From Escherichia coli (lineage in GTDB: Bacteria > Pseudomonadota > Gammaproteobacteria > Enterobacterales > Enterobacteriaceae): a stretch of 64,000 nucleotides of DNA. Under the pieces are notes generated by a model. That model saw nothing but the letters and a program-made list of their open reading frames with translations. It was not told the DNA's origin and ran no database searches. Within the stretch, counting starts at the first letter, position 1. Every line of letters starts with the position of its first letter. Shown here one piece after another: positions 7,984 through 44,845 of the stretch. The position numbers and the translations under genes were made by a program. The stretch lies in the NCBI RefSeq assembly GCF_003790525.1, contig NZ_CP033636.1; one strand, given 5' to 3'.

Positions 7984-8774
7984 TATTTGCCGATTACCTT
8001 GGTGATCTCGCCTTTCACGTAGTGGACAAATTCTTCCAACTGATCTGCGCGCGAGGCCAAGCGATCTTCTTCTTGTCCAAGATAAGCCTGTCTAGCTTCA
8101 AGTATGACGGGCTGATACTGGGCCGGCAGGCGCTCCATTGCCCAGTCGGCAGCGACATCCTTCGGCGCGATTTTGCCGGTTACTGCGCTGTACCAAATGC
8201 GGGACAACGTAAGCACTACATTTCGCTCATCGCCAGCCCAGTCGGGCGGCGAGTTCCATAGCGTTAAGGTTTCATTTAGCGCCTCAAATAGATCCTGTTC
8301 AGGAACCGGATCAAAGAGTTCCTCCGCCGCTGGACCTACCAAGGCAACGCTATGTTCTCTTGCTTTTGTCAGCAAGATAGCCAGATCAATGTCGATCGTG
8401 GCTGGCTCGAAGATACCTGCAAGAATGTCATTGCGCTGCCATTCTCCAAATTGCAGTTCGCGCTTAGCTGGATAACGCCACGGAATGATGTCGTCGTGCA
8501 CAACAATGGTGACTTCTACAGCGCGGAGAATCTCGCTCTCTCCAGGGGAAGCCGAAGTTTCCAAAAGGTCGTTGATCAAAGCTCGCCGCGTTGTTTCATC
8601 AAGCCTTACGGTCACCGTAACCAGCAAATCAATATCGCTGTATGGCTTCAGGCCGCCATCCACTGCGGAGCCGTACAAATGCACGGCCAGCAACGTTGAT
8701 TCCAGATGGCGCTCAATGACGCTTAGCACCTCTGATAGTTGGTTCGAAATTTCGATGGTCACCGCTACCCTCAT
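7983..8774 (-). CDS. aadA2: aminoglycoside (3'') adenylyltransferase AadA2 (streptomycin/spectinomycin), cassette 1 of integron 1
   Basis: MRVAVTIEISNQLSEVLSVIERHLESTLLAVHLYGSAVDGGLKPYSDIDLLVTVTVRLDE...; start chosen at internal ATG of longer ORF that reads through attI1. Confidence 0.9.
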   Translation of the reverse strand: MRVAVTIEISNQLSEVLSVIERHLESTLLAVHLYGSAVDGGLKPYSDIDLLVTVTVRLDETTRRALINDLLETSASPGESEILRAVEVTIVVHDDIIPWRYPAKRELQFGEWQRNDILAGIFEPATIDIDLAILLTKAREHSVALVGPAAEELFDPVPEQDLFEALNETLTLWNSPPDWAGDERNVVLTLSRIWYSAVTGKIAPKDVAADWAMERLPAQYQPVILEARQAYLGQEEDRLASRADQLEEFVHYVKGEITKVIGK

Positions 8775-8922
8775 GATGTCTAACTTTGTTTTAGGGCGAC
8801 TGCCCTGCTGCGTAACATCGTTGCTGCTCCATAACATCAAACATCGACCCACGGCGTAACGCGCTTGCTGCTTGGATGCCCGAGGCATAGACTGTACCCC
8901 AAAAAAACAGTCATAACAAGCC
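8775..8922. other. attI1 recombination region of integron 1 (approximate)
   Basis: Lies between intI1 start (8923) and first cassette; contains the ORF-11-like leader translated as ...PRASKQQARYAVGRCLMLWSSNDVTQQGSRPKTKL. Confidence 0.55.
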
Positions 8923-16930: not shown

Positions 16931-17133
16931 TTCCGTCTATGCCCTTAAATAAGTGCTGATGAACATTTTTTCACCGCATTACCGCATTTAGGTTATTGCA
17001 TTTAATCTATCGCATATAGGCTATGTCGTTCATTGTGTGCCGTCACGTTTAGATTATGGTGTCAGGGTATACCCTTATGCGATAACCATTTTTGTTAAAA
17101 ATAACGCATCGAATAATTTATGAGGAAAACTAT

Positions 17134-20121
17134 ATGGCAAGGAGGCAGATTCTTTCTCTGTCGGAAAGAGAATCATTACTGGCATTACCGGACGATGAGT
17201 TAACGCTGACCCGAATGGCCTATTTCAGTGAGCATGATCTGGCGCTTATCAGTGCTCACCGTAAACCCGCCAGCCGTTTTGGTTTTGCCGTCCTTCTTTG
17301 CTATCTGAAAAATGTCGGCTTTGCCCCGGATAAAAAAATCTCTCCCTCTGATGCGCTGCTGAAGCATATCGCCAGCAGGCTAAAGCTTACCGGGGATCTC
17401 TGGCCTGCTTACCTTTCCGGCCGGGATACGACCCGGCGTGAGCATTTAACCGAACTGTACCGCTATCTTGGCGTAAAGGCGTTCACCGGCAAAATACAGC
17501 AGGACTGTATTACGCACCTGTTATCGATGGCGACGCGCACCGATAAAGGCATTCTCCTAGCCGAAGAGTTACTTGTCTATCTCCGGCAGAACAACGTGAT
17601 AATCCCCGCGATTGATGTCGTGGAGCGTACCTGTGCTGAAGTCATGGCAGGCGGCGATAAAATCGTATTTCAGACCCTGAATGCCCCGTTAACTCCGGCT
17701 CACAGGGATGCCCTGGATCATTTACTTGAGTCATCAGATAATCAGCCTTCCAGGCTGACATGGCTTCTGCAACCGCCGGGTAAAATCAATGGTAAGAACG
17801 TGCTGCAACATCTTGATCGGCTCAGCAGCATTGAATCGCTGGCATTACCTGAAGGTATAGATCGTACCATTCACCAGAACCGGTTGCTGAAACTGGCGCG
17901 GGAAGGCCGAAAGATGAGTAGCCGGGATTTGACCCGATTTTCAGCTGCCCGGCGTCATGCGATCCTGGTGTGCGTGCTGGAAGAAGCCAGAGCCACACTG
18001 ACAGACGAAGTGATTGAGCTGCATGAGCGAATGCTGAATAGTCTTTTCAGCAAAGCCAAACGAACACAGGCTGAGCGCCTTCAGCAGACCGGAAAGCTGA
18101 TCCAGTCAAAACTGAGGCAGTACATCGATGTCGGTCAGGCGCTGTCTGATGCCCGTGATTCCGGTGGCGATCCCTGGCTCGCAATAGAAAACATACTCCC
18201 ATGGGCTGAATTTGTCGCCAGTCTGGATGAAACACGCCATCTCGCCAGAAAAAATAATTTTGACCCGCTGCATATTATTACCGAGAAATACAGCACATTA
18301 CGGAAATATGCCCCACGCATGTTGTCCGCTTTACAGTTAGTCGCAACCCCGGCAGCGCAACCTCTGGCTGATGCACTGGTTGTGATCAAGGATATGTACC
18401 GGAAGCAGTCACGTAAAGTTCCGGCGGCAGCGCCGCTTGAGTTTGTCCCTGAAAGCTGGCGCAAGGTGGTGATTACACCTGTGGGTATTGACCGGCAGTA
18501 CTATGAGTTTTGTGCACTCAGCGAGCTTAAGGGGGCGTTGCGCTCCGGGGATATCTGGGTTAAAGGCTCGCGCCGCTACAAAAATTTTGATGATTACCTC
18601 ATACCCGAGAAGGACTTTGACAAACTCACACCGGCACTGCCACTGCCCGTATCTGCTGATTATCATGAGTACATTACCAGCCGTATGACCCTGCTTCAGT
18701 CCAGACTTGAAGAGGTCAATGCCATGGCTGCCCTTGGTGAACTGCCCGATGTGGAAATATCCGACAGGGGCGTAAAAGTCTCTCCGCTGGATAACTGCGT
18801 TCCGGCGCAGGTTTCACCGCTGGCAGAGCTGGTTTACAGCATGCTACCGCGACCTAAAATCACGGAAATTCTCGATGAGGTAAACAGCTGGACGACGTTT
18901 ACCCGACATTTTTCGCATATAAAAAATGACATTACCCGTCCCGATACCCGCTTGCTCCTCACCACCATTCTTGCGGATGGCATCAATCTTGGCCTGACCA
19001 AAATGGCAGAAGCCTGCCCCGGGAGCACCAAATCATCACTCGAAGATATTCAGGCATGGTACATCCGTGACGAAACCTATTCAGCCGCTCTTGCAGAGCT
19101 GGTAAATGCGCAGGGGAAAAGACCGTTGGCGGCATTTTGGGGAGACGGAACAACGTCATCATCAGATGGACAAAATTTCAGAACCGGCAGCTCAGGCCGC
19201 TACGCAGGGCAGGTTAACCCGAAATATGGGCAAGAGCCTGGACGTCAGTTTTATACCCATATTTCGGATCAATACAGCCCGTTTTACACCTGCATAATCA
19301 GTCGGGTCAGGGATTCAACCCATGTTCTCGATGGCTTGCTGTACCACGAAAGCGACCTGGAAATCAGGGAACATTACACCGATACCGCTGGTTTCACCGA
19401 TCATGTCTTTGCCCTGATGCATCTGTTGGGATTTGCGTTCTGTCCGCGAATCAGGGATCTCCACGACAAAAAACTGTTTATCAAAGGGAAAGCAGAGAAA
19501 TACCCGGCGCTTCAGTCACTGATATCAACGACCAGCCTGAATCTGAAAGAGATCGAAATCCACTGGCGTGAAGTGCTGCGTCTGGCAACCTCGATAAAGC
19601 AGGGAACCGTGACGGCATCCCTGATGCTGAAAAAGCTTGCCAGCTATCCCAAGCAAAACGGACTTGCCAAAGCACTGAGAGAAATTGGCCGCATTGAGCG
19701 AACCCTGTTTATGCTCGACTGGTTCCGCGACCCGGCTCTGCGTCGGCGGGTACAGGCGGGGCTGAATAAAGGCGAAGCCCGTAACGCGCTGGCGCGTGCG
19801 GTATTTATGCACCGACTGGGAGAAATCAGGGACAGAAAACCGGAAAATCAGAGCTATCGCGCCAGTGGACTGACGCTGCTGACGGCTGCCATATCCCTGT
19901 GGAATACCGTCTATATGGAAAGAGCGGTCGATGCCCTGAAGCGTAAAGGGGTGAAGATCAACGAGCAACTGCTGTCGCATTTGTCGCCGTTGGGCTGGGA
20001 ACACATCAATCTGACAGGTGATTATATCTGGAAAAGCAACCGGATACCGGCTTCTGGTAAGTTTCGTCGGCTAAGACCAGCTAAAGTCGAAAGGTCAAAA
20101 AACAGCCTTAACGTACAATAA
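17134..20121 (+). CDS. tnpA: Tn3-family (Tn21-subgroup-like) transposase TnpA, apparently intact
   Basis: 995-aa [44 protein letters not shown]... to ...[45 protein letters not shown]; SD GAGGA upstream; stop inside 38-bp IR. Confidence 0.9.
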   Translation: MARRQILSLSERESLLALPDDELTLTRMAYFSEHDLALISAHRKPASRFGFAVLLCYLKNVGFAPDKKISPSDALLKHIASRLKLTGDLWPAYLSGRDTTRREHLTELYRYLGVKAFTGKIQQDCITHLLSMATRTDKGILLAEELLVYLRQNNVIIPAIDVVERTCAEVMAGGDKIVFQTLNAPLTPAHRDALDHLLESSDNQPSRLTWLLQPPGKINGKNVLQHLDRLSSIESLALPEGIDRTIHQNRLLKLAREGRKMSSRDLTRFSAARRHAILVCVLEEARATLTDEVIELHERMLNSLFSKAKRTQAERLQQTGKLIQSKLRQYIDVGQALSDARDSGGDPWLAIENILPWAEFVASLDETRHLARKNNFDPLHIITEKYSTLRKYAPRMLSALQLVATPAAQPLADALVVIKDMYRKQSRKVPAAAPLEFVPESWRKVVITPVGIDRQYYEFCALSELKGALRSGDIWVKGSRRYKNFDDYLIPEKDFDKLTPALPLPVSADYHEYITSRMTLLQSRLEEVNAMAALGELPDVEISDRGVKVSPLDNCVPAQVSPLAELVYSMLPRPKITEILDEVNSWTTFTRHFSHIKNDITRPDTRLLLTTILADGINLGLTKMAEACPGSTKSSLEDIQAWYIRDETYSAALAELVNAQGKRPLAAFWGDGTTSSSDGQNFRTGSSGRYAGQVNPKYGQEPGRQFYTHISDQYSPFYTCIISRVRDSTHVLDGLLYHESDLEIREHYTDTAGFTDHVFALMHLLGFAFCPRIRDLHDKKLFIKGKAEKYPALQSLISTTSLNLKEIEIHWREVLRLATSIKQGTVTASLMLKKLASYPKQNGLAKALREIGRIERTLFMLDWFRDPALRRRVQAGLNKGEARNALARAVFMHRLGEIRDRKPENQSYRASGLTLLTAAISLWNTVYMERAVDALKRKGVKINEQLLSHLSPLGWEHINLTGDYIWKSNRIPASGKFRRLRPAKVERSKNSLNVQ

Positions 20122-21408: not shown

Positions 21409-22227
21409 ATGACTCAAAACCAGGGTTCTGAGCCAGTACCGGCGAGCCGGACAGGGCAGCTCATCAGCGCCCGGGATATGGCCATGCAGAAATTCGAAGA
21501 AGGGATGCGGTTAATCTCGGAAGCGTCGGAACTGTGCGGTCTCTCTCTCTTCACCAGCAGAATTATGCAGCCCAACGCATTTGGTCTTCCGTCGTCACTG
21601 GATCGCACCATCGAGGAGGGGCGTAAGGAAATTGACCGTAAAACGTGGAAAAGGCTCTTTGAAGAAACAGGTATGGACCGGTACTGGAACCATAAGCAAA
21701 AAGAAGCCTTTAACGAATCCCTTCGTACGGATCCGCCCGTCGCTTCCCTGGAGATTGTTAAGGGAACATTACAGCATGCACTGGCTAACAGACGAGACAC
21801 CCTTGCAGAAGGTTTCGTTGATGTTCTCAACAAGCTTGACCGAAGTTTCAAAAGCAATGCCAGGCAATATACAATGCCAAAAAAGCTTGTTCTTCGGGGG
21901 ATTTTTCCTGGTGTGAACGTGCTGAGGTACAACGGTTTCTCGCAGGACAATCACTTTTGTTTACGCGACTTTGAGAATATTGTATGCATCTGTTCTGATA
22001 CTCCAACACCTGCAACCGGCGGTGGGCTGAGTATGGTCGACAGGCTGACGGCCATGAGAAATACAGAATTCACAGGCGAGGTCAGTGATGAGAATGGCTG
22101 GCGGTGTCGCCTGTTTGAGAATGGAAACGTTCATATTTGCATCGACAGTATCTCGCTTCTGAATGCTCTGAACGATCTTATCAGCATATATTTTGCAAAC
22201 CAGCTTCCGGCCGCAGGAAAAAAATGA
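21409..22227 (+). CDS. hypothetical protein (272 aa), first gene of a two-gene operon
   Basis: ATG at 21409 preceded by GGAG; stop overlaps next start (ATGATGA); low-GC island. Confidence 0.5.
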   Translation: MTQNQGSEPVPASRTGQLISARDMAMQKFEEGMRLISEASELCGLSLFTSRIMQPNAFGLPSSLDRTIEEGRKEIDRKTWKRLFEETGMDRYWNHKQKEAFNESLRTDPPVASLEIVKGTLQHALANRRDTLAEGFVDVLNKLDRSFKSNARQYTMPKKLVLRGIFPGVNVLRYNGFSQDNHFCLRDFENIVCICSDTPTPATGGGLSMVDRLTAMRNTEFTGEVSDENGWRCRLFENGNVHICIDSISLLNALNDLISIYFANQLPAAGKK

Positions 22228-23429
22228 TGATTGAAAATGATAAAGAAAAAAGCCTGAACGATGCTACCCCGCCAGAGGTGCAGAATGACATCCGCAGCGA
22301 ATCCACTGAAAAATCAAAGGAAATGGGTCGTTCAAGGTACTCATCTATCGCGATGATCGATTACTTCAATGCAATCGAACGTCTGTGCAAAGAGAAAGAA
22401 ATTAACCCGGAAAATATCGATCTGAGCTTCAAAGTTCACTGGCTCAGAAACGCTGTTGGCGGCTCGTTTGCAAGGTCACAGGAGATGTTCGCGGAGTACC
22501 AGAAGTATGTTAAAGAGGTTCCTGAAGAGGCCCGTTACCTGGATATACCCGATGAGGTAAAGGTTGCACTCGGCGATATTATCTCGTACATCACCTGGCA
22601 CTACCGTAGAAGCTATACCGCAATACAGAATGATAGTGTTAAAAAAGCTGAAGCACGTAGCATGCAGCTGGAGGAGGAGGTAACGCAGCTGTTACAGCGG
22701 CTTGAGCAAAGCGCTACCGATATGGATGAGCTGAAACTTGAGAATCAGGCACTACAGGGTCGATTAGAGATCCGGGACAGTACCGTCAAGGAGTTAGAAA
22801 CAAGGCTGAATGTTGCCGAAGCAGAACTCGAAACCTGCCATCACCAGTTAGATAGCACACGGCATGAATTGAGCCTCGCACAGCAGTCAAATGACTCACT
22901 CTCCCAGCAACTGGCTGAACGTAAAACAGAGATCGCTGGTCACCTTGAATATCAAAAAAAGCTGAACGAAGAGATCAACACGCAGCGTTCTGATAACGCC
23001 GGTCTTTCCAGACAATGCGACCAGTTAAGTCAGACTGTGTCAGATACAAAGGCAGAGAGGGACAGGTTTGAACAGGAATTGATTGCTGCACAGAACCTTT
23101 GTACTGAGCTGAAAAGTGCACTGTCCGGGAAAGAGGGTGACCTGGTGGCGGTGAATGCCGAGCTTACTGAACTCCATAAACTAAACGAGTCGCTGAGCGC
23201 CGACCTGAATAAAGTAACTTTGGTCAGCCAGGGCTATGAAGCGGAAGTGGCTGAACAAAGCAATGAACTCAAAACGCTCCAGGCCAAAGTAATGAAGCTG
23301 GAAGCTACCCTGGAGGCGGAGAAAACAATCTCAGAATCCCTAAAAGGCACCATTGATACATTAACTGGTGCAATGGCAGGGGGAGGTACTGGAAAGTCAA
23401 AACAGCCGCGTAGCAGAAAAACATCATGA
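22224..23429 (+). CDS. coiled-coil protein (401 aa), KfrA-like architecture
   Basis: Long heptad-rich, Q/E/L/K-rich central region (…LEEEVTQLLQRLEQSATDMDELKLENQALQGRLEIRDSTVKELETRLNVAEAELE…) after a globular N-terminus; translationally coupled to upstream gene. Confidence 0.5.
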   Translation: MMIENDKEKSLNDATPPEVQNDIRSESTEKSKEMGRSRYSSIAMIDYFNAIERLCKEKEINPENIDLSFKVHWLRNAVGGSFARSQEMFAEYQKYVKEVPEEARYLDIPDEVKVALGDIISYITWHYRRSYTAIQNDSVKKAEARSMQLEEEVTQLLQRLEQSATDMDELKLENQALQGRLEIRDSTVKELETRLNVAEAELETCHHQLDSTRHELSLAQQSNDSLSQQLAERKTEIAGHLEYQKKLNEEINTQRSDNAGLSRQCDQLSQTVSDTKAERDRFEQELIAAQNLCTELKSALSGKEGDLVAVNAELTELHKLNESLSADLNKVTLVSQGYEAEVAEQSNELKTLQAKVMKLEATLEAEKTISESLKGTIDTLTGAMAGGGTGKSKQPRSRKTS

Positions 23430-23482
23430 TAAATGAAGCCAGGTTGATACACTTCTCTGCATCCCCTGGCACATAAGAACTT

Positions 23483-23507
23483 CTGCGGACATTCAGCCCG
23501 TCCGCAG
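23483..23507 (+). terminator. putative rho-independent terminator after the coiled-coil gene
   Basis: CTGCGGAC-ATTCAGCCC-GTCCGCAG stem-loop followed by GAGTTTTCG. Confidence 0.45.
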
Positions 23508-23708
23508 GAGTTTTCGTCCTTCAGTCAACAAATGCACTACCTTTTTTGAGTCTCCACTTTCCAGAGCAGAAAACACGTTACCGATTCTACCAACAGCTTG
23601 TATCTGAGTGATAACCCCAGTCTTGTAATCATCTAGGATCCCTGACAGGAAAGCGTTCAGTTTTGTCTGTTCGCTTAGCGAAAGCATGTAGGACATTTTT
23701 TCTCCATT

Positions 23709-25028
23709 TTAAGCAGGTGTGTCAGTTGAAAGAGGTTTGCGTGATTCTGGAAAATGAGGCAGCACCATAGTTTCAGATGCTGTGGTCGCATCCCAGTGCC
23801 ACCATCCATAAGGCCCATATTCACGGTTGTAATAATCTTTTTTGAGTTGCTTTCGGGCCAGATAAGCAGGAGTGGCCATACCAAATACTTCCATCGGGAA
23901 CGGCTTATCGCTTTTTGTGTCGAGCAGGTAGAAGTCAGGGAACACCTCACTAATACTCGCATCATAACGCATGGGCTTAACGTACTGCCGGTGCTCTGCA
24001 TCCAGCTTTTCTGCAACAACCGCCTCATAGGAGGAGTCCAGAGGTATCCAGTTCTCGCTAACGTGCATCAGCACAATTTGATGAGCTCTTACAGAAGGGC
24101 CTCTGCCGGTTACCGCAGCTGGTGACGTCAACGCAAAGACAACTATTTTCGCCCCGGATTTCCATGCTGCGTACTCCGATGAAAATCGTTTCTTTACGCT
24201 ATCCCAATGGACTTCTGAATTGAAAAAAATCAGCGGTAGCCCCCCAAAATTCCGCAGGGGTAAAAATTTAAGTGGCTTCTCATGCTTTTCAGCATCGTAG
24301 CGAGGTAAAACTGACAGGAGCATGAGACGTTTATCACTCATCGCCTGTGATGAAAGACGCTGAATTTGCGACTGAGCGACAGGTTGTTTCGGGTCAGGTA
24401 CACCAATGAATAAATGGTCACCTATGCAGGCTCTGCCGGTACGAATTTGTTTAGCGGTTTCAAGCAGACGATACCGTACCAGTGAATCGTTACGTTTCCC
24501 TGCCATTTTCGGGTACCAGACATTCAGACCAGACTCTGTCCACAAAAGACTAAGCAAGCCCAGGAGGGTCATTGAGGCCTGACCTCCTTCTGGTCGCTGA
24601 ACATGGGGCAGGGGAGGCACTTCTGATTTTTCAGGAGGATCTTTCTCTGTCATACCGATACCGAGCCTTACAGCCATATCACCTTCGGTTGTAATCCGGA
24701 CCACACCACTCGCATATCCTTTCAGGCCGGTATGCCGGGCATCAAGGGAGAAGAATACACAGGAAGGATCATGCTCAATGCCCGTGTTAGCGGCTTTGAC
24801 GAGAATAAAGGCATCACCGTTCGGTAAAGCACGAACATAAAGTCGCTTTTCTCCTTTTCCACGACATCCGCAGGTGATGACTGATTTTTGACCTGAGGTG
24901 TGGTGTGCCTTTTTAAGAGCCGACTGCCACCCTTTAGCAAACTCATCCTGCGTTTGAAAGTCAGGTGAATACCTTTTGACGTTTGGATCGTCGTCGTAAG
25001 CAATCATCACTGCGAATTTTTGGCTCAT
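23709..25028 (-). CDS. hypothetical protein (439 aa), last large gene of methyltransferase operon; candidate effector/restriction component
   Basis: SD AGGAGA 8 bp upstream of ATG; contains CGCRGKG and other Cys/His-containing segments; no confidently recognisable nuclease motif by eye. Confidence 0.6.
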   Translation of the reverse strand: MSQKFAVMIAYDDDPNVKRYSPDFQTQDEFAKGWQSALKKAHHTSGQKSVITCGCRGKGEKRLYVRALPNGDAFILVKAANTGIEHDPSCVFFSLDARHTGLKGYASGVVRITTEGDMAVRLGIGMTEKDPPEKSEVPPLPHVQRPEGGQASMTLLGLLSLLWTESGLNVWYPKMAGKRNDSLVRYRLLETAKQIRTGRACIGDHLFIGVPDPKQPVAQSQIQRLSSQAMSDKRLMLLSVLPRYDAEKHEKPLKFLPLRNFGGLPLIFFNSEVHWDSVKKRFSSEYAAWKSGAKIVVFALTSPAAVTGRGPSVRAHQIVLMHVSENWIPLDSSYEAVVAEKLDAEHRQYVKPMRYDASISEVFPDFYLLDTKSDKPFPMEVFGMATPAYLARKQLKKDYYNREYGPYGWWHWDATTASETMVLPHFPESRKPLSTDTPA

Positions 25029-25050
25029 AGTAGTCTCCTAAACAGGAAGT

Positions 25051-25218
25051 TTAATATCCCAACCAGAGCAACACTTCCTGAGCGTCATACTGTTCCTTTA
25101 CGCCCATGTCGCTAAAGAATTCTTCGAAATCTGTTTCGGGAACGCAATGCCTGGACAGTTCTTGTAATGCTCGTTCTTTAGATACCGTCTCACCTTCAGC
25201 TGATTCGAAATACGTCAT
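25051..25218 (-). CDS. small hypothetical protein (55 aa) between methyltransferase and 439-aa gene
   Basis: Own translation of minus strand: MTYFESAEGETVSKERALQELSRHCVPETDFEEFFSDMGVKEQYDAQEVLLWLGY; not in supplied ORF track (below length cut-off). Confidence 0.4.
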   Translation of the reverse strand: MTYFESAEGETVSKERALQELSRHCVPETDFEEFFSDMGVKEQYDAQEVLLWLGY

Positions 25219-25278: not shown

Positions 25279-26706
25279 TCAGCTGACTTCGTCGTAAAAC
25301 TGCCGCAAGCGCTGGGAGGCTGCAAATTCAATTCGTGACTTCAGCAGTTTGGCGACGGCCGCAAAGACATCAACGACCACGGAGTTCCCAAACTGTCTGT
25401 AAGCCTGTGTATTGGACACAGGGATACGGAAAACACTTTCCCCGGGTTTATCGAAGCCCATTAGCCTGCTGCATTCACGTGGCGTTAGCATGCGTGGCCG
25501 ACGGTCCATGTTGTATGTGTTATGGAAATCAGTTTCTCCCAGTTCATGAGACCAGCCCCGATCAATAAGAATTTCAGATCCGTCTTTCATATAGCGGCTT
25601 GAGAGGGTTCTGGTGACACTATTAACATTGGAAGGATCTACTAGTCCAAAACCAAAACCATTGCCTTTTGCCGCATGTTTCTTTGCATAGTTGTATAAGT
25701 ACTCCCAGAGTTTAGGGGAGAGGATGTATTTACTATCTACGCTCGGATCCAGTAAATCTGAGAGAGAAGGGCGCTTGTCCGGATAAAAGTCTTTAATGTC
25801 TCTCAGAGTAAAACCGTCTTTCAGACGTAGGTCGCGGCGAAAACCAATAAGGACGATACGTTCACGGTGCTGGGGTCGGAAATGACGGCCATCGATGACT
25901 TTAGGATCATCCGCGCCCGTGCTTTCGCTGTTTGCGACGTCGTAGCCAAGCTCATCGAGCGTTTTCATGATGATGTTAAAGGTATTACCCTTATCGTGAC
26001 TCTTCAGATTTTTTACGTTTTCCAGAACAAAAATTGCAGGTTGTTTTGCCCGGATGATCCTGGCCACATCAAAGAAGAGCGTACCCTGAGTGTCGCACTC
26101 GAAACCGTGTTTGCGACCCATAGAGTTCTTTTTACTGACACCGGCGATGCTGAATGGCTGGCATGGAAATCCCGCAAGAAGAACATCATGATCCGGGATA
26201 GAGGCATCGATAAATTTGTATGCCTCGTCATCAGTAACCTCGGGCCGGTTGCTAAGAGTGATGTCACGGATGTCTGAATTGAAGCGGTGCTCGTTCTCAT
26301 CGCAATACCAGTTCGCCCGGTAAGTACGGCTGGAATAAGTATTCCATTCGCTCGTGAAAAGACATTTACCACCGATGGCATCAAATCCGCTTCGCAGTCC
26401 ACCTATCCCTGCAAACAGATCGATAAAGCTAAAGTGCCTGTCCTCATAATCAGCAGGTCGTGAAGGTATTAAAGTCTGTAGATAGCGTCCATCTGCGATA
26501 CTCAGCTCACAATGCTCAGGTATGCATGTAACCTGACGTTTAAGGGATGCACGGGACCAATTACTGCCATTTTCATCATTTAATACCTGAGCCAGATATT
26601 TCAGGTCATAAATGGTCGAAGCTGTTAACAAAGTTTTGTGGATCAGAGATGGTGTTTTATCCACATCATTCAGGTCTGTCTCAAGATCATGAGTGTAACG
26701 TTTCAT
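25279..26706 (-). CDS. DNA (cytosine-5)-methyltransferase with ~100-aa N-terminal extension
   Basis: Motif [16 protein letters not shown], motif [13 protein letters not shown], motif VI ENVKNL, motif X QFGNSV; ATG at 26706 chosen (longer ORF to 26748 uses a GTG). Confidence 0.85.
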
Positions 26707-26917: not shown

Positions 26918-27436
26918 ATGATGTTTTTTTTAACAAAGTTACTTTTGCCCATCATGATTGTTGTATTCCCAGTGGCGTCCTGGGGGAACTCAACAACTTT
27001 TGAGGCAAAGGTGGTTAAGATTGTTGACGGTGACACCATAACTGCGTTGGATGCTCAAAACACAACCATCAAAATACGGATGTATGGTATAGACGCTCCT
27101 GAATCTAAACAGGCTTTTGGCCAAAAAGCAAAACAGGCCTTAACCACAGCTATAGCAACTAAAATCGTTACCGTGATAGACCATGGTACGGATATCTATG
27201 GCCGTATGTTAGGTACCATCTGGTTAGATGGATATGATATCAATGCCTCTATGGTGGACAGTGGATATGCGTGGGTTTATCGGTTCGAAGATAACGCCAT
27301 TGTCCCTGGCTATATCAAATATGAATCCGCAGCACAAAAGGAGGCAAAAGGGTTATGGGCAGACACCAACCCTGTCCCACCATGGCAGTGGAGACAGGCA
27401 AACGAAAAGCCCAGAAAGGTGAAAGAGAAGAAATAA
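26918..27436 (+). CDS. nuc: secreted thermonuclease (staphylococcal nuclease / SNase family)
   Basis: Signal peptide MMFFLTKLLLPIMIVVFPVASWG; SNase motifs VDGDT, RMYGIDAPE, YGR, GLW; SD AAGGTG upstream. Confidence 0.8.
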   Translation: MMFFLTKLLLPIMIVVFPVASWGNSTTFEAKVVKIVDGDTITALDAQNTTIKIRMYGIDAPESKQAFGQKAKQALTTAIATKIVTVIDHGTDIYGRMLGTIWLDGYDINASMVDSGYAWVYRFEDNAIVPGYIKYESAAQKEAKGLWADTNPVPPWQWRQANEKPRKVKEKK

Positions 27437-27438
27437 CC

Positions 27439-28335
27439 ATGATGAAAGAGCCTCATCCGTTACTTCAGTTGGTACTAAACGATTCCGGTCGTCTAACCAT
27501 GCCTGTTTATTATAGAGATCAACAGTATTGCCCGACTTGCCTTACAAAGGTGTTGAAGAGTGAGGATGGAAGTTTGGCGCACCTCGGGGAAATAAATCAA
27601 AATACATGTAGACCTTCTATTTCAGTAGTTGTGACAAAAGCAATTATTGAAATGTTATGTGACGGGGAAAAAATATATGTAAATCCAATACGACACCGAG
27701 GCCGGGTGCTGGCACCCTCAGTAATTTTTTCTCCCGACACTCACACTTTCAAACCGTTTATAAATACAGACTATCAGCCTGTGGGAGCAAACTGGAAAAG
27801 TGAAAAGGGATATAAACTCGGTCTGTTTTATCTCAAAGATCGAGCCAACTCTATCAATAAAGAGGAATTTGATTTCATTGCCGTTATAGACCCTGAGGCA
27901 ATGCAGAAAGAATTTATTTCGGCCTGGTCTGAGGTTGATGAAAAAAATCCATTGGAAACGCTGAAGCAGATCTTACGATCTAAAAACAACTCTTCTTTAT
28001 GGGTAAAATGGCCTGGCAAAATTGAGCATGCGCAAAAAGGAAATTACAACGAAAATTACTGGTTCGATTATCAATCTGATAATCAGGAAGTGAACTGTAC
28101 GGTCTCTGTTGTAGGTATCGAAGGTAACAGTTCCGGTGAGACAATTTATAGATTGCAAACTTTGCTAAAGCGTAAGCTCAATGAATATCAACTGGTTCGG
28201 TCTTTAGGAACTATTATGCTTCTTGATAATACCGGGAATATGATTCCATCAAACCATCCTTATTTTGAAGTCATCTCAAAAGCATGTATAAATGGAGTGC
28301 GTGACTTTGTTCGTCAAAACCCGTGGGTAGTCTGA
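27439..28335 (+). CDS. hypothetical protein (298 aa)
   Basis: Starts 2 nt after nuclease stop; no recognisable motif. Confidence 0.5.
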   Translation: MMKEPHPLLQLVLNDSGRLTMPVYYRDQQYCPTCLTKVLKSEDGSLAHLGEINQNTCRPSISVVVTKAIIEMLCDGEKIYVNPIRHRGRVLAPSVIFSPDTHTFKPFINTDYQPVGANWKSEKGYKLGLFYLKDRANSINKEEFDFIAVIDPEAMQKEFISAWSEVDEKNPLETLKQILRSKNNSSLWVKWPGKIEHAQKGNYNENYWFDYQSDNQEVNCTVSVVGIEGNSSGETIYRLQTLLKRKLNEYQLVRSLGTIMLLDNTGNMIPSNHPYFEVISKACINGVRDFVRQNPWVV

Positions 28336-28382
28336 CGGTCAACTATAAAGCATAATATAATTAGTAATAACAAGGAACAGAC

Positions 28383-28790
28383 ATGAATGAAAACTCAGTA
28401 ATCTTAATAAGTTTATTTTGGTTTTTTTTGGGATCGAGTGTTGTAGCTGGTTTTATGGATGCATCATTATATTGCTGGATTTTTGCAGCCATAAGCGCAT
28501 TGTTTCTTCTTTCGGTGATACAAACACCAAAGGAGTTAACGGTATCTATTAGTCATATGACAAGCAAAACGCTGATCTCAAAGACAGATGATGGATACAC
28601 ATTTAGCATTTCACCTTACGGAGACGGGTACCGCTTATCAGTCTCGCCTGAAAATCGTCACAATGGTACCCAAAGCTTTGACGGCTGGTTCCCACGTTTT
28701 TTTTCCGAACCACAGTATGCCAAATCATCTTTAACTAAATTTCTCGGTGAGTCCTTAGTATGGGAAGAAGATTCAAGTAATGCTCTATGA
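28383..28790 (+). CDS. hypothetical membrane protein (135 aa, two N-terminal hydrophobic helices)
   Basis: SD AAGGA upstream; hydrophobic N-terminus ILISLFWFFLGSSVVAGF... Confidence 0.45.
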   Translation: MNENSVILISLFWFFLGSSVVAGFMDASLYCWIFAAISALFLLSVIQTPKELTVSISHMTSKTLISKTDDGYTFSISPYGDGYRLSVSPENRHNGTQSFDGWFPRFFSEPQYAKSSLTKFLGESLVWEEDSSNAL

Positions 28791-28835
28791 GATTACTTAT
28801 TATAAATTTTTCTATTAATCTCCATGGAGTGATAT

Positions 28836-29090
28836 ATGAATTTGGCCTATTTTTTATTTTTGTCTATAACTGTTATGCTTACGAGCTTTATTATTAAATC
28901 ACTTGTCGTATTGGTAAAGTTCAAATTACTTCGTGATGAACGTCTCGAATATACCAGCAATAAAAATATTGATGAGATGTACGATTTAATGAATGCGAAG
29001 GAAGAAATCCTCATAAGGCATCATAAGCAGATGTTGGCATTGCATCTTTCACTATTAATATTCGTTCTATTTATTGCTTACATTTACTAA
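28836..29090 (+). CDS. small hypothetical membrane protein (84 aa)
   Basis: SD GGAG upstream; two hydrophobic segments. Confidence 0.4.
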   Translation: MNLAYFLFLSITVMLTSFIIKSLVVLVKFKLLRDERLEYTSNKNIDEMYDLMNAKEEILIRHHKQMLALHLSLLIFVLFIAYIY

Positions 29091-29127
29091 AAATAATTTT
29101 ATTCAACATTTCAACAAAGGGTTTTCA

Positions 29128-29415
29128 ATGGAAAGCTTCGAAACTGAACAAATGATTCAATATGCTTTCTACATAAATATCGTAATAACGACTGGTTTGG
29201 CATGGTTTTGCTTGCGGTCAGGATTGCATTACAATTTTTTCAGAAAAGCAGAGAGTGCCAGAACAAAAGGGCTGAGTAGTACCTCTACTGAACACGGTCC
29301 AGCAATAGTGAGACTAAAGAAGCTACAAGCATTAGTAGATTTTATTAGTAACTGTGCTTTTCTAATCCTTTCAATTGGCACAGCTTATATTTTGTATGTT
29401 TGGAGCCACAGTTAA
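29128..29415 (+). CDS. small hypothetical membrane protein (95 aa)
   Basis: ATG at 29128 within longer TTG-initiated ORF; two hydrophobic segments. Confidence 0.4.
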   Translation: MESFETEQMIQYAFYINIVITTGLAWFCLRSGLHYNFFRKAESARTKGLSSTSTEHGPAIVRLKKLQALVDFISNCAFLILSIGTAYILYVWSHS

Positions 29416-29484
29416 CTCATACGAGGTAACTTCGGCAGGTAACAACTTCTAATGCAGGACTTTAATAACTCTAAGGGATTCTAC

Positions 29485-29682
29485 ATGAAAAAAGACGATC
29501 TAATTACGCGTTGTAAATTACTTAAAGGCGAACGCGATGAGTCTATCTTTACCATATTAATTGGGATAGTAGTAAAGCTGGGGCTGGTAGGCCTGGCATT
29601 CTATCTGTTGCTTGGTTCCACGATTGATTGGTCAAGCTGGAAAACTTATGCCGCCATGTTGATCTTGGGAGCATTTCTCTAA
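29485..29682 (+). CDS. small hypothetical membrane protein (65 aa)
   Basis: MKKDDLITRCKLLKGERDESIFTILIGIVVKLGLVGLAFYLLLG...; SD AAGGGA upstream. Confidence 0.35.
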   Translation: MKKDDLITRCKLLKGERDESIFTILIGIVVKLGLVGLAFYLLLGSTIDWSSWKTYAAMLILGAFL

Positions 29683-30018: not shown

Positions 30019-30480
30019 ATGACAAATTCTCAATCTGATTTTCCTTTGAACGATCAAAATTTTCAGGCAGATTTGCTGAAAATCAAAAAGGTTTTCGCCG
30101 ACCTTATAACGCAGGCATCAGATGGTAAGATACCCATAAGGTCTTCTCATGTACACGGCTTACACCATTTCGAGGAGCTCTACATCCGGGCAAGAGCAGG
30201 CATGTGTTCGGTCCTGGGATATCCGGTCATGGTTGTTTCAACTATCTCAGTTAAAGAGCCCGGCACAGGCATTTTTAGAGCGCTTCTTGCAGAATTGAAA
30301 TGTATTGCAGATGAACAAAATTACATTTTGAAAATTGAAAATGTACTGCCTCCCCTATTCCGCAAATACCTTATTCAAGAAGGTTTTGTTTTCCCAGGTG
30401 AACCTTGGATGTGTGGTTCCGGCTATTGGTTTAAGAACCCACAAGTACTTCATGAAAATATTGAGTTATTATCTGTTTAA
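30019..30480 (+). CDS. hypothetical protein (153 aa), possible GNAT-like fold
   Basis: Segment VMVVSTISVKEPGTGIFRALLAEL loosely resembles acetyltransferase motif A; weak. Confidence 0.4.
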   Translation: MTNSQSDFPLNDQNFQADLLKIKKVFADLITQASDGKIPIRSSHVHGLHHFEELYIRARAGMCSVLGYPVMVVSTISVKEPGTGIFRALLAELKCIADEQNYILKIENVLPPLFRKYLIQEGFVFPGEPWMCGSGYWFKNPQVLHENIELLSV

Positions 30481-30509: not shown

Positions 30510-30917
30510 ATGTCCCCGGAATTGGTATCAGACATTGCAAGAGTGGCGCATGAAAAGCTACTTTCAATTTTAACGGAGTGCGGCATAGAGAAGACGGCAG
30601 GCACTTGCCTTTTTGCAAGCTATCTTGTGTGTTATTTAGCAAAAACTAAAGGTCTAGATGCTGTTGTCCGTGGGGGTAACGGTGCAGATGATGGCGGTAT
30701 ATTTATAGAGTGTGGTGGCTTTGGCCATTATTGGTGTGAGTTGAATTTCGAAGAAGTGCAATATTATATTGACATCACTTCCGAACAGTTTGGGTTTCAT
30801 CCATACATAGTGAAACTCGCCAACGATATAACAGGATGGCCTCGATATATTCCTGGTGATCAGGAAACGGTCGATAGTCATTTAGAACAATTATTACGCG
30901 ACGGCTATACAGAATAG
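30510..30917 (+). CDS. hypothetical protein (135 aa), possible Cys/His hydrolase
   Basis: SD GGAG upstream; candidate catalytic Cys (AGTCLFASY) and His (GGFGHYWCE); speculative. Confidence 0.4.
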   Translation: MSPELVSDIARVAHEKLLSILTECGIEKTAGTCLFASYLVCYLAKTKGLDAVVRGGNGADDGGIFIECGGFGHYWCELNFEEVQYYIDITSEQFGFHPYIVKLANDITGWPRYIPGDQETVDSHLEQLLRDGYTE

Positions 30918-30967: not shown

Positions 30968-31495
30968 TTAACGGAACCACTCAGGATGACGCTGCCGATC
31001 AACTTTGATAACCTGCGAATTAAATTCAACGACATCCGCTGGAGTAAGCATTAATTCATCAGGATTTACAATAAATGGTCTTAAAACCACTTCGCCACCG
31101 TCTTCTTTTGCACCGTAGATATTAATAAGAAAGTGCAGTCGTTGATTTCCTTCAGCATTGCGTTGCCATTCTCTAAAAGTCAAAGTTTGTTTAATATAGT
31201 TTGTTAAAAGAAATGCGAATTCAGATTCTTCCGTTTGTGAGATACCGATTTTGTTAGACATTTTTTTTAGTATCTTTCCGAGCATGGACACACAGGCATC
31301 TAGACTTAACGATGTTGAAATTTTGGTCGTATTAAAATCCTCCTGCGAAAGTGAAATCATCCATGTATTATCTTTATGATAGTCGGTAATATAAATAAAA
31401 TGAGATGTAAAAGGCGTTGAGTGATTGAACTCTCCTAAGTTCCATCCATACTGACTCACTGTATTTGAGCTAAGTTCTTTGTCGGTAATGTTCAT
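30968..31495 (-). CDS. hypothetical protein (175 aa)
   Basis: ORF with plausible SD; no motif recognised. Confidence 0.45.
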   Translation of the reverse strand: MNITDKELSSNTVSQYGWNLGEFNHSTPFTSHFIYITDYHKDNTWMISLSQEDFNTTKISTSLSLDACVSMLGKILKKMSNKIGISQTEESEFAFLLTNYIKQTLTFREWQRNAEGNQRLHFLINIYGAKEDGGEVVLRPFIVNPDELMLTPADVVEFNSQVIKVDRQRHPEWFR

Positions 31496-31661: not shown

Positions 31662-32048
31662 CTACTTGAATTTTTGATAGCTTATGGTTGTTTTATGTTC
31701 TTTGTGATACGCATATGTCATCTTCTCTTTCCAGTACCAATCTTGTAGATCCTGCAAGTCTAGCCCATTTTTCTCACGTATGCTTTCGTGTAATTCGCTA
31801 AGCGCGAGTTTATCATTAGGTTTATAAATGGCTAATTTTTCTTCAAATAAATCCAGCCAACGTTTCCCCATCTTACGACGCAAAACAAACACCATCGTGA
31901 TAAATGTAATGAAATGCACAGCAATTAGTTCCAACTTATGCGATTGCTGACCAGATAAAATTACTATTGTAACAACAGGGATGGCCGTATATAAAGCAAT
32001 CAAAGCGACCATAAGTTGGTATGGTTTTTCCCGTATTACCATGTTCAT
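31662..32048 (-). CDS. hypothetical membrane protein (128 aa)
   Basis: Two hydrophobic helices; start lies 41 bp from the Tn1721 IR so promoter may be displaced. Confidence 0.4.
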   Translation of the reverse strand: MNMVIREKPYQLMVALIALYTAIPVVTIVILSGQQSHKLELIAVHFITFITMVFVLRRKMGKRWLDLFEEKLAIYKPNDKLALSELHESIREKNGLDLQDLQDWYWKEKMTYAYHKEHKTTISYQKFK

Positions 32049-32088: not shown

Positions 32089-32126
32089 GGGGAGCCCGCA
32101 GAATTCGGAAAAAATCGTACGCTAAG
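32089..32126 (+). repeat. Tn1721 38-bp terminal inverted repeat
   Basis: GGGGAGCCCGCAGAATTCGGAAAAAATCGTACGCTAAG. Confidence 0.9.
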
Positions 32127-33942
32127 GTTTTCCGGGCATCCGTAAGGGCCGAAACTTCCCGTCTTCCAGTCTGCGGCTCTGCCGCCAGACGTAATCGCCG
32201 GTTAGGTTGATGTGCTCCCAGCCCAGCGGCGACAGGAATTGCAGCAGCTCGCCGTCCACCGGCTTGCCGGCCTCGACCAACCCCTGGGTGGCGCGTTCCA
32301 GGTACACCGTGTTCCACAGCACGATAGCCGCCGTCACCAGGTTGAGGCCGCTGGCCCGGTAGCGCTGCTGCTCGAAGCTCCGATCCCTGATTTCCCCAAG
32401 GCGGTTGAAGAACACCGCCCTGGCCAGCGAGTTGCGCGCCTCACCTTTGTTCAGGCCGGCATGCACGCGGCGGCGCAGTTCAACACTTTGCAGCCAGTCC
32501 AGGATGAACAGCGTGCGCTCGATCCGGCCCAGCTCGCGCAGGGCCACGGCCAGTCCGTTCTGGCGCGGGTAGCTGCCGAGCTTGCGCAGCATCAGCGAGG
32601 CGGTGACGGTGCCCTGCTTGATCGAGCTGGCCAGGCGCAGGATGTCGTCCCAGTGGGCACGCACGTGCTTGATGTTCAGGGTGCCGCCGATCAGCGGGCG
32701 CAACGTCGGGTAGGCTTGCACGCCCTGCGGCACGTACAGCTTGGTTTCGCCGAGGTCGCGGATGCGCGGCGCGAAGCGGAAGCCTAGCAGGTGCATCAGG
32801 GCAAAGACGTGATCGGTGAAGCCGGCCGTGTCGGTGTAGTGCTCCTCGATCCGCAGGTCGGACTCGTGGTACAGCAGGCCGTCGAGCACATAGGTGGAAT
32901 CGCGGACGCCGACATTCACCACGCGGGTGCTGAACGGCGCGTACTGGTCGGAGATATGGGTATAGAACAGCCGTCCCGGCTCGCTACCGTACTTCGGGTT
33001 GACGTGCCCGGTGCTCTCGCCCCGGCCACCCGCGCGGAAGCGCTGGCCATCGGAGGATGAGGTCGTGCCGTCGCCCCAGTGGGCGGCAAAGGCGTGGCGA
33101 TACTGGTGGTTGACCAGCTCGGCCAAGGCCGCCGAATAGGTTTCGTCGCGGATGTGCCAGGCTTGCAGCCAGGACAGCTTGGCGTAGGTCAGGCCGGGGC
33201 TCGACTCGGCCATCTTGGTCAGCCCGAGGTTGATCGCATCACCGAGGATTGCGGACAGCAGCAACGTCCTGTCTTTGGCCTCGGCCCCGTCCTTCAAGTG
33301 GGTGAAGTGGCGGCTGAAGCCCGTCCAGTCGTCCACGTCCATCAGCAGTTCGGTGATCTTGATGCGCGGCAGTAACTGGCTGGTTTGGTCGATCAGCGCC
33401 TGCGCCCGATCCGGCACCGCCGCATCCAGCGGGGTGATTTTCAGCCCTGACTCGGTGAGGATGGCATCGGGCAGCTCGTTGTCCTTGGCCAGGCGGGTGA
33501 CGGTGGCCAACTGCTCGTCCAGCAGCTGCAAACGCTCTTCCAGGTACTGGTCGCTGTTCGGGTTGATCGCCAGGGGCAGGGCCTGCTCGCGCTTGAGTGC
33601 GGCGAACTTCTCGGCCGGCAGCAGGTAGTCGTCGAAGTCGCGGAACTGCCGCGAGCCCTTGACCCAGATGTCGCCGGAGCGCAGGGCGTTCTTCAGCTCG
33701 GACAGGGCGCAGATTTCGTAGAATTTCCGGTCGAGGCCTTCCGGGGTGATCACCAGCGGCTTCCAGCGCGGCTTGATGAAGGCCGTGGGTGCATCGGCCG
33801 GCACCTTGCGCAGGTTGTCGGCGTTCATCTCACGCAGGGTCTGCACGGCTGCCAGCACGCCTTGCGCGGCCGGCCCGTGCTGTTCCCCAACTTTTCGCTC
33901 GGCGAAGAGTATGAACATGCGCCGCCGGCGACGAATCGCCAA
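32122..33942 (-). pseudogene. tnpA: Tn1721 truncated transposase gene (tnpA', C-terminal ~585 codons)
   Basis: ...[74 protein letters not shown]... to ...[36 protein letters not shown]; N-terminal half absent. Confidence 0.85.
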
Positions 33943-44673: not shown

Positions 44674-44845
44674 GGCTTGTTATGACTGTTTTTTTGTACA
44701 GTCTATGCCTCGGGCATCCAAGCAGCAAGCGCGTTACGCCGTGGGTCGATGTTTGATGTTATGGAGCAGCAACGATGTTACGCAGCAGGGCAGTCGCCCT
44801 AAAACAAAGTTATGCAGCCAAATCCCAACAATTAAGGGTCTTAAA
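44674..44845. other. attI1 region of integron 2 (approximate)
   Basis: Between intI1 start and first cassette ATG. Confidence 0.55.

Follow-up and report, generated by a model that had tools for sequence, protein, structure and literature searches.

Organization of the locus

We analyzed a nuclease gene and the open reading frames (ORFs) downstream of it in a 64,000-nucleotide stretch of Escherichia coli DNA (contig NZ_CP033636.1 of assembly GCF_003790525.1), which we refer to as the window and whose first letter is position 1. The nuclease gene (26921..27436, + strand) encodes a 171–amino acid (aa) protein of the SNase (thermonuclease) family and is followed, after a gap of 2 nt, by orf298 (27439..28335, +), the gene of a 298-aa orphan protein, and then by four small ORFs on the same strand: orf135 (28383..28790), orf84 (28836..29090), orf95 (29128..29415), and orf65 (29485..29682). 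An earlier note, made from the DNA letters without database searches, had placed these ORFs on one strand with the same 2-nt gap, and this placement was confirmed; the ATG at 26918 from which it read the nuclease is an alternative start, one codon upstream of the start at 26921 that is called by the Prokaryotic Genome Annotation Pipeline (PGAP). The Shine-Dalgarno (SD)–like sequences that it described were likewise found 5 to 10 nt upstream of each ORF (AAGGTGA, AAGGAA, GGAG, AAGGG, and AAGGGA).

The region is a backbone operon of the known IncHI-type (MOBH/MPF_F) conjugative plasmids. The 3-kb stretch was 100% identical to plasmids typed as IncHI2A/MOBH/MPF_F (a typing taken from matching records that were opened individually), and it matched 1,138 PLSDB records, 1,074 of which cover at least 80% of the query and 666 of which reach an identity of at least 99%. 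Matches also occurred in 285 of 5,426 complete E. coli genomes, nearly all of them on plasmids. The sequence itself is thus not new, being present already in more than 1,000 records, and it does not differ in kind from the backbone shared by IncHI1 and IncHI2 plasmids (the R27/pHCM1/R478 family), apart from a 530–base pair (bp) deletion in the small-ORF array. The earlier note had offered “plain plasmid backbone” as an alternative to a more unusual cluster, and this alternative was borne out: the block to which the operon belongs recurs in IncHI2A-typed plasmids and is syntenic, at ~52% protein identity, in the IncHI1 plasmid pHCM1 (L014; L numbers denote the loci compared). A known, annotated block with assigned functions, which the note had named as grounds against its reading, was found in the sense that this is conserved IncHI backbone but not in the sense of function, as none is assigned beyond the nuclease annotation: PGAP/RefSeq lists the nuclease as “thermonuclease family protein” and the other ORFs of the operon, where they are called, as “hypothetical protein.”

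A predicted exported nuclease

The product of the first gene matched the NCBIfam models EcnA (7e-19) and NucI (5e-13), both under their equivalog cutoffs and hence at the family level only, together with the PHROG family phrog_452 (1e-19), the CBASS-type SNc effector model of PADLOC-DB v2 (3e-11, by its SNase domain), and the Staphylococcus aureus nuclease in PDB (phmmer E = 1e-10, residues 29 to 150); PF00565 is precomputed on its orthologues. When aligned to the S. aureus enzyme, the motifs VDGDT and RMYGIDAPE coincide with the Ca2+-binding and catalytic residues, and D21, R35, D40, E43, and R87 are all kept (in DGDT, as the R of IKIR, as the D and E of IDAPE, and as the R of YGR), with T41 replaced by Ala. 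The ligand contributed by T41 in the S. aureus nuclease is its backbone carbonyl. With its active-site residues retained, the plasmid nuclease appears to be catalytically intact, and its gene evolves with a ratio of nonsynonymous to synonymous substitution rates (dN/dS) of 0.16. This and all dN/dS values below were obtained by the Nei-Gojobori method against L019, the lineage with 81% identity in orf298, and for orf95 also against the IncHI1-type locus L004.

The first 22 residues of the nuclease are hydrophobic (Kyte-Doolittle peak of 2.26) and end in the small-residue sequence S-W-G, which, together with conservation among orthologues, points to a Sec signal peptide, MFFLTKLLLPIMIVVFPVASWG (26921..26986, +). 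The same layout of K or KK, hydrophobic core, and small-residue end was present in 10 of 10 SNase orthologues (59 to 99% identity). From the family matches, the kept active site, and the signal peptide conserved in ten orthologues, we infer an active, exported, Ca2+-dependent, and non-specific nuclease, in line with the signal-peptide-bearing SNase-family nuclease of the earlier note, which had cited the two motifs. The S. aureus thermonuclease (Nuc, PF00565) shares the fold family, the catalytic constellation, and an N-terminal signal peptide; it differs in that the similarity is low, in the Ala at position 41, and in that the present gene resides on plasmids of Enterobacteriaceae, where the orphan gene of a 298-aa protein is coupled to it.

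Homologues of the nuclease with 37 to 52% identity were found in at least 5,000 PLSDB records, so that the exported SNase as such looks like an ordinary plasmid backbone gene. Plasmids of the IncC and Klebsiella IncFIB/HI1B types likewise carry a small SNase-domain gene in their backbone, but with other neighbors: on Klebsiella p23-1 (L024, 2859-5215), the SNase gene is divergent from a (split) DUF1173 gene and followed by a gene for H-NS, and on the IncC plasmid (L025, 3962-4819), it is followed by a gene for HU, in neither case by orf298. The SNase genes of both loci thus adjoin genes for nucleoid-associated proteins, and the arrangement in L024 indicates that the association of DUF1173 with SNase reaches beyond IncHI. 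On RK2/RP4, the ParB protein is of the SNase type and is encoded in the parCBA operon along with the ParA resolvase. We rejected a multimer-resolution operon of this kind for the present locus, as no resolvase or ParC-like gene is adjacent and the neighbors are instead the Dcm-type methyltransferase and orf298.

An orphan protein coupled to the nuclease

The distance between the SNase stop and the orf298 start stayed between an 8-nt overlap and a 17-nt gap in 10 of 10 lineages, including the most distant one, L012, where SNase and orf298 alone remain together without the methyltransferase. The orphan gene is probably co-transcribed with the nuclease gene and translationally coupled to it, and this fixed coupling would, from the loci compared, be an IncHI-specific feature. 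The orf298 gene is under purifying selection (dN/dS of 0.19), and the identities of its homologues to the window are 81% in L019, 73% in L021, 52% in both the L003-L007 group and pHCM1, 45% in L022, 41% in L013, 37-38% in L008, and ~20% in L009.

No match to orf298 was found in Pfam even at E ≤ 10, nor in NCBIfam, PADLOC, or PHROG, nor by sequence in PDB, and we recognized no fold and no nuclease-family or nuclease-fold match. The family is small, comprising 34 clusters (at 90% identity) among 5.8 billion proteins, with 25 representatives among 1.84 billion proteins in a profile search. Its long members begin with a CPxC...H...C motif, as in the window, whereas it is missing from the short, distant ones. 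Invariant throughout the wide family are P93, W119, S121, G124, G128, W188, E234, L261, and C283, a set that does not suggest a catalytic site. The protein has no transmembrane (TM) segment by Kyte-Doolittle hydropathy and no signal peptide, and it is predicted to be cytoplasmic, belonging to an orphan family that appears confined to MOBH-type plasmids and related islands. Descent from a common ancestor with DUF1173, which also has an N-terminal Cys/His motif, was considered and rejected (hhalign probability of 0.5%).

The coupling is not seen everywhere in the wider families. On an IncT plasmid and on a Klebsiella MOBH plasmid, relatives of orf298 with ~25% identity have no SNase gene next to them, and orf298 matched 1,555 plasmids compared to at least 5,000 for the SNase homologues. 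In AlphaFold2 (AF2), we also modeled a fusion of the mature SNase and orf298 with a linker of 30 residues between them, using an alignment in which the sequences were paired by locus. Each of the two domains was modeled with confidence (predicted local distance difference test of ~90 and ~80), and the predicted TM score (pTM) of the fusion was 0.43; no fixed complex was predicted in this crude test, which lends a stable SNase-orf298 complex no support. Our best guess is that orf298 regulates or safeguards the nuclease as its partner.

Some database entries join the two genes. UniProt H9THC4 from Salmonella Heidelberg (an AFDB50 match), named as a “TNase-like domain-containing protein” and 473 aa long, is a gene call in which SNase and orf298 are fused, and two clusters of ~190 aa (P0033/P0034) join the SNase domain to part of orf298. 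Such fused calls are probably frameshift, deletion, or assembly variants.

A deletion chimera and a mosaic array of small genes

The first small ORF, orf135, is a deletion chimera found in this plasmid lineage only. Comparison by BLASTN with L017 and L018, the ORFs of L017, and the junction sequence together revealed that it joins, in frame, the N-terminal 56 aa of orf104 (a membrane protein of 104 aa), two junction codons (SH), and the entire orf77. The other main IncHI2 lineage (for example, OW967211, L017) is 97.9% identical at the nucleotide level and has 530 extra bases, with window position 28550|28551 corresponding to 3215|3746 in L017. There, the array reads orf104 (~3 TM segments), orf85 (~3 TM), orf77 (soluble), orf84, orf95, and orf65/76; the deletion thus also removed the membrane-protein gene orf85. 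No obvious microhomology was seen at the junction. The 530-bp segment is present in 462 PLSDB plasmids, and the deleted form is present in ~650. The orf77 portion of the chimera (28557..28790, +), a conserved soluble domain with the signature DDGYTF...NGTQxFDGWFPR..., is a stand-alone gene of 75 to 77 aa in L017, L019, L004, and L008 (56 to 97% identity). Its stand-alone occurrence in IncHI1-type loci and in L008, at 56 to 58% identity, indicates that this form is ancestral.

Each of the small ORFs encodes one or two TM segments by Kyte-Doolittle hydropathy. The orf84 protein combines a TM segment, a charged loop, and a C-terminal TM segment, orf95 encodes a two-TM hairpin protein, and the small membrane protein of orf65 has its TM segment at residues 29-58 when read as a 76-aa form from 29452 (PGAP calls the 65-aa form). 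The earlier note had described four small membrane proteins; the hydropathy agrees for all four, but the first of them is the chimera, whose C-terminal 77 aa are soluble. PGAP calls neither orf84 nor orf95: both are absent from the RefSeq/PGAP annotation of NZ_CP031547 (L001, 14037-14291 and 14329-14616), and orf77 and orf95 are likewise unannotated in OW967211. None of the small ORFs matched NCBIfam, PADLOC, PHROGs, or Pfam, and the immunity, exclusion, or pore-forming roles that the note had considered for them received no positive evidence.

The array nevertheless evolves as coding sequence. Values of dN/dS were 0.18 for orf104, 0.33 for orf85, 0.17-0.25 for orf95, 0.27 for orf77, and 0.23 for orf84; orf65 was the least constrained of the set, with 0.3-0.7 (up to 0.74) on few substitutions. 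These values indicate purifying selection, and the small ORFs are thus genuine genes, orf65 being the least certain. The lack of conservation that the note had named as a refutation was therefore not what we found, as purifying selection goes together with homologues in divergent loci. For orf95, these lie in L019 (54% identity, 1e-34) and in the IncHI1-type L004 (35%, 2e-15), and for orf84, in the distant L009 (34%, 1e-8), where a highly divergent orf298 lies 2.3 kb upstream of it. The families of orf77 and orf84 were not found outside these modules. We examined whether the hairpin proteins are paralogues and rejected this in general: orf84 versus orf95 was not significant, and only the group of the window orf95 with L019_98 and L004_99 and the pair of orf84 with L009_87 were supported.

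Membership and order of the array vary strongly between lineages. An orf98 lies ahead of orf77 in L019, proteins of 86 and 187 aa are encoded in L021, and the array of L004 has a hairpin protein of 97 aa after its orf95 homologue; hairpin proteins are absent in L008, L012, and L022. The synonymous divergence (dS) between the window and L019 is equally uneven, from 0.08-0.11 (orf77 and orf84) through 0.56 (orf298) to ~2 (orf95). This uneven dS, together with the changed gene order, points to recombination and a mosaic array. With these absences and replacements in L008, L012, and L022 and the reordering in L019, the small proteins do not belong to the module as a fixed part.

A conserved block on both sides of the methyltransferase

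Upstream of the operon and divergent from it lies the gene of a Dcm-type DNA cytosine-5 methyltransferase (25279..26706, − strand; NCBIfam PRK10458, 840 bits at a cutoff of 710), whose best PADLOC model is “orphan methyltransferase.” It adjoins the SNase gene in 9 of 10 divergent lineages and is fragmented in L022. With the nuclease divergent from this gene and far from transfer genes, the context is indeed unlike that of the nuc genes embedded in tra regions, as the earlier note had remarked. Beyond the methyltransferase, the left arm of the block (21409..25218) comprises DUF4942 (21409-22227, +), a 401-aa coiled-coil protein (22224-23429, +), a 67-aa ORF (23493-23696, −) between the coiled-coil gene and DUF1173, DUF1173 itself (23709-25028, −), and a 55-aa ORF (25051-25218, −).

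The gene order is accordingly DUF4942, a coiled-coil protein of ~400 aa, 67 aa, DUF1173, 55 aa, and the methyltransferase, followed divergently by SNase and orf298. Nine lineages have the block: the window, L019, L021, the L003-L007 group, L022, L013, L008, L009, and IncHI1 pHCM1. The order of the left arm is identical in IncHI2, IncHI1, L003-L007, L009, L013, L019, L021, and L022; in L008 it is incomplete, with DUF1173 several small ORFs away from the methyltransferase and no DUF4942 gene called. Judged by this synteny, the SNase-orf298 operon is the right arm of a block common to IncHI1, IncHI2, and related islands. The RefSeq IncHI2 record (L001) has no annotation of the 67-aa ORF; pHCM1 (L014) has one, and the ORF was also called in L003-L007, L019, and L021.

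DUF1173 is reported to have a fold related to PD-(D/E)XK, but to lack the active-site signature (PMC3045609). A type II restriction-modification system was rejected as an identity for the block, given that orf298 has no nuclease match, DUF1173 lacks the active-site signature, and the methyltransferase is best assigned to the orphan class. In PADLOC-DB v2, only the SNase domain and the methyltransferase matched; orf298 and all the small ORFs did not.

Downstream of the small-ORF array, the Thoeris genes ThsB_TIR and ThsA_Macro are found in the IncHI1-type or chromosomal copies L003, L006, and L007 (10235-11691), and a DUF2726 gene together with an S-4TM putative pore-forming effector is found in the IncHI2 plasmid L018 (4959-7698). 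In the loci compared, this site behaves like a variable hotspot whose conflict-type cargo differs by lineage. In the window, four more backbone ORFs follow: 30019-30480 (+, 153 aa), 30510-30917 (+, 135 aa), 30968-31495 (−, 175 aa), and 31662-32048 (−, 128 aa, with two TM segments). They had no match in NCBIfam or PADLOC and only weak PHROG hits, and a Pfam scan of the first two (orf153 and orf135b) was without match; in the 135-aa protein, a Cys...His arrangement (TCLFASY...GHYWCE) recalls a putative papain-like or transglutaminase-like fold.

The IncHI backbone stops at 32122, at the start of a truncated TnAs1-like transposase, where the GC content rises from 36% to 63%. This Tn3-family transposase (32122-33942, −) closes the low-GC backbone segment, and a complete 1009-aa Tn3-family transposase (17092-20121, +) lies upstream of the DUF4942 gene. 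Two Rfam AAC_AAD_leader/attI matches, at 8755-8830 (−) and 44763-44829 (+), with 74 and 77 bits, indicate two probable class 1 integron attI sites in the window. Within the operon region, we found no Rfam RNA family and no meaningful repeats, and the counts of predicted promoters and terminators were at the level of shuffled sequence.

Possible functions of the operon

We consider it reasonably likely, if far from certain, that this is a backbone operon built around a non-specific nuclease that is exported and breaks down DNA in the envelope or extracellularly. The product of the first gene, with its cleavable Sec signal peptide, would be exported to the periplasm or the envelope and, with Ca2+ at hand there, would cut DNA and RNA non-specifically; likely substrates would be extracellular or biofilm DNA, or unprotected DNA that enters the envelope. 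The cytoplasmic orphan protein orf298 would be co-expressed, and the AT-rich, recombining array would then supply small inner-membrane proteins whose membership differs by plasmid lineage. Export, substrate, and any role of orf298 or of the small proteins are all put forward here from the sequence data.

Several points weigh against this reading. Export rests on a hydropathy heuristic, and a nuclease that acts outside the cytoplasm would leave its tight coupling to a cytoplasmic partner unexplained. The AF2 fusion, with its pTM of 0.43, does not point to a fixed complex. Because the small proteins vary between lineages, a view of the operon as one machine is weak. Furthermore, the searchable literature holds no experiment or expression data for the operon and, more broadly, nothing relevant on the function or expression of an IncHI nuclease.

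A different account of the coupling would make orf298 a cytoplasmic inhibitor that neutralizes the nuclease precursor before export. There is precedent for such pairs, as NuiA inhibits the secreted NucA of Anabaena and barstar inhibits barnase; there too, an exported nuclease is encoded beside the gene of a cytoplasmic protein. The invariable position of orf298 directly after the SNase gene (with an overlap or at most 17 nt between them in each of the ten lineages) and the signal peptide on the nuclease but not on orf298 would fit, and so would the faster divergence of orf298 (52% versus 74% for the nuclease between IncHI2 and IncHI1, and 38% versus 59% for L008), which is typical of immunity-like partners. 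Unlike these known inhibitors, however, orf298 has no similarity to known proteins, its complex with the nuclease is not predicted, and it has relatives without an adjacent nuclease. SNase requires millimolar Ca2+, and a cytoplasmic precursor should be nearly inactive, which counts against a need for inhibition; a protein of 298 aa with an optional zinc-ribbon-like N-terminus is also large for a simple inhibitor. Because of the AF2 result, the stand-alone orf298 relatives on IncT and Klebsiella MOBH plasmids, and the wider distribution of SNase than of orf298 (with the L024 and L025 contexts lacking an orf298-like partner), we treat inhibition as a minority view that is unlikely to be correct. 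An operon of the bacteriocin kind, in which the nuclease is a secreted toxin, orf298 its immunity protein, and the small membrane proteins serve release or lysis, would use the same pairing, and the gene order on one strand is superficially like that of colicin operons (toxin, immunity, lysis). We find this hardly credible: apart from its Sec signal, the nuclease comprises no more than an SNase domain of 149 aa, without receptor-binding or translocation domains, no small ORF has on inspection the lipobox that colicin lysis proteins need, and at least 5,000 plasmids carry the same type of enzyme as common backbone.

The neighborhood raises the prospect that the whole block, from DUF4942 and the SMC-like coiled-coil protein to orf298 and the small membrane proteins, is a multi-gene defense or anti-defense (establishment) module, with the small TM proteins as membrane-disrupting effectors. 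Its gene order is kept in IncHI2, in IncHI1, and in the copies on chromosomes or islands, it adjoins Thoeris ThsB/ThsA in L003, L006, and L007 and DUF2726 with the S-4TM effector in L018, the methyltransferase matches orphan and type II methyltransferase models, DUF1173 has its PD-(D/E)XK-related fold (PMC3045609), and the coiled-coil protein weakly resembles LmuB/JetC. Yet the latter matches are low-complexity coiled-coil similarity, DUF1173 lacks the nuclease active-site signature, nothing beyond the methyltransferase and the generic SNase domain gives a meaningful PADLOC match, the small TM proteins are variable or absent, and an exported nuclease cannot reach phage DNA in the cytoplasm, so that we regard such a module as improbable. 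More speculative still, and in our judgment a long shot, is a new envelope-level DNA barrier specific to H-group plasmids that is formed by SNase-orf298, the orf77 protein, and the hairpin membrane proteins. The cytoplasmic orphan protein would then control or position the periplasmic nuclease via inner-membrane adaptors, and incoming DNA of phages or rival plasmids would be degraded during entry, whereas the plasmid’s own DNA, methylated by Dcm or shielded by the type IV secretion system, would be spared. At the other extreme, the small ORFs could be no genes at all but chance ORFs in an AT-rich spacer. The absence of orf84 and orf95 from the PGAP calls, the lack of family matches, the GC content of 36% in the small-ORF region, the high dN/dS of orf65 on few changes, and the accidental fusion in orf135 are all compatible with this. 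It is nevertheless very unlikely in view of the dN/dS of 0.17-0.33 for orf104, orf85, orf95, orf77, and orf84 at dS values of 0.1-2, the homologues kept at 34-55% identity in divergent loci, and the SD motifs. AT-rich DNA moreover disfavors long ORFs, and we estimate a chance expectation of ~0.2 ORFs of at least 84 codons on each strand of a 1.3-kb stretch, which the four non-overlapping ORFs seen (65-135 codons, on one strand) far exceed.

The backbone operon with an exported nuclease, which we favor, is ordinary overall, and it is a well-defined target for knockout rather than a surprise. As far as the searchable literature shows, what has not been described before is the invariant pairing of SNase with orf298, the extent of the IncHI block, and the corrected gene model of the small ORFs, which now includes a chimera made by deletion and two conserved genes that are absent from the RefSeq annotation. 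IncHI2 plasmids are major carriers of mcr-1, mcr-9, extended-spectrum β-lactamase, and metal-resistance genes, and much of their backbone of ~200 kb is without assigned function. If the nuclease affects extracellular DNA and biofilms, transformation, or the entry of phages or plasmids, then it would bear on the persistence and spread of IncHI2 plasmids.

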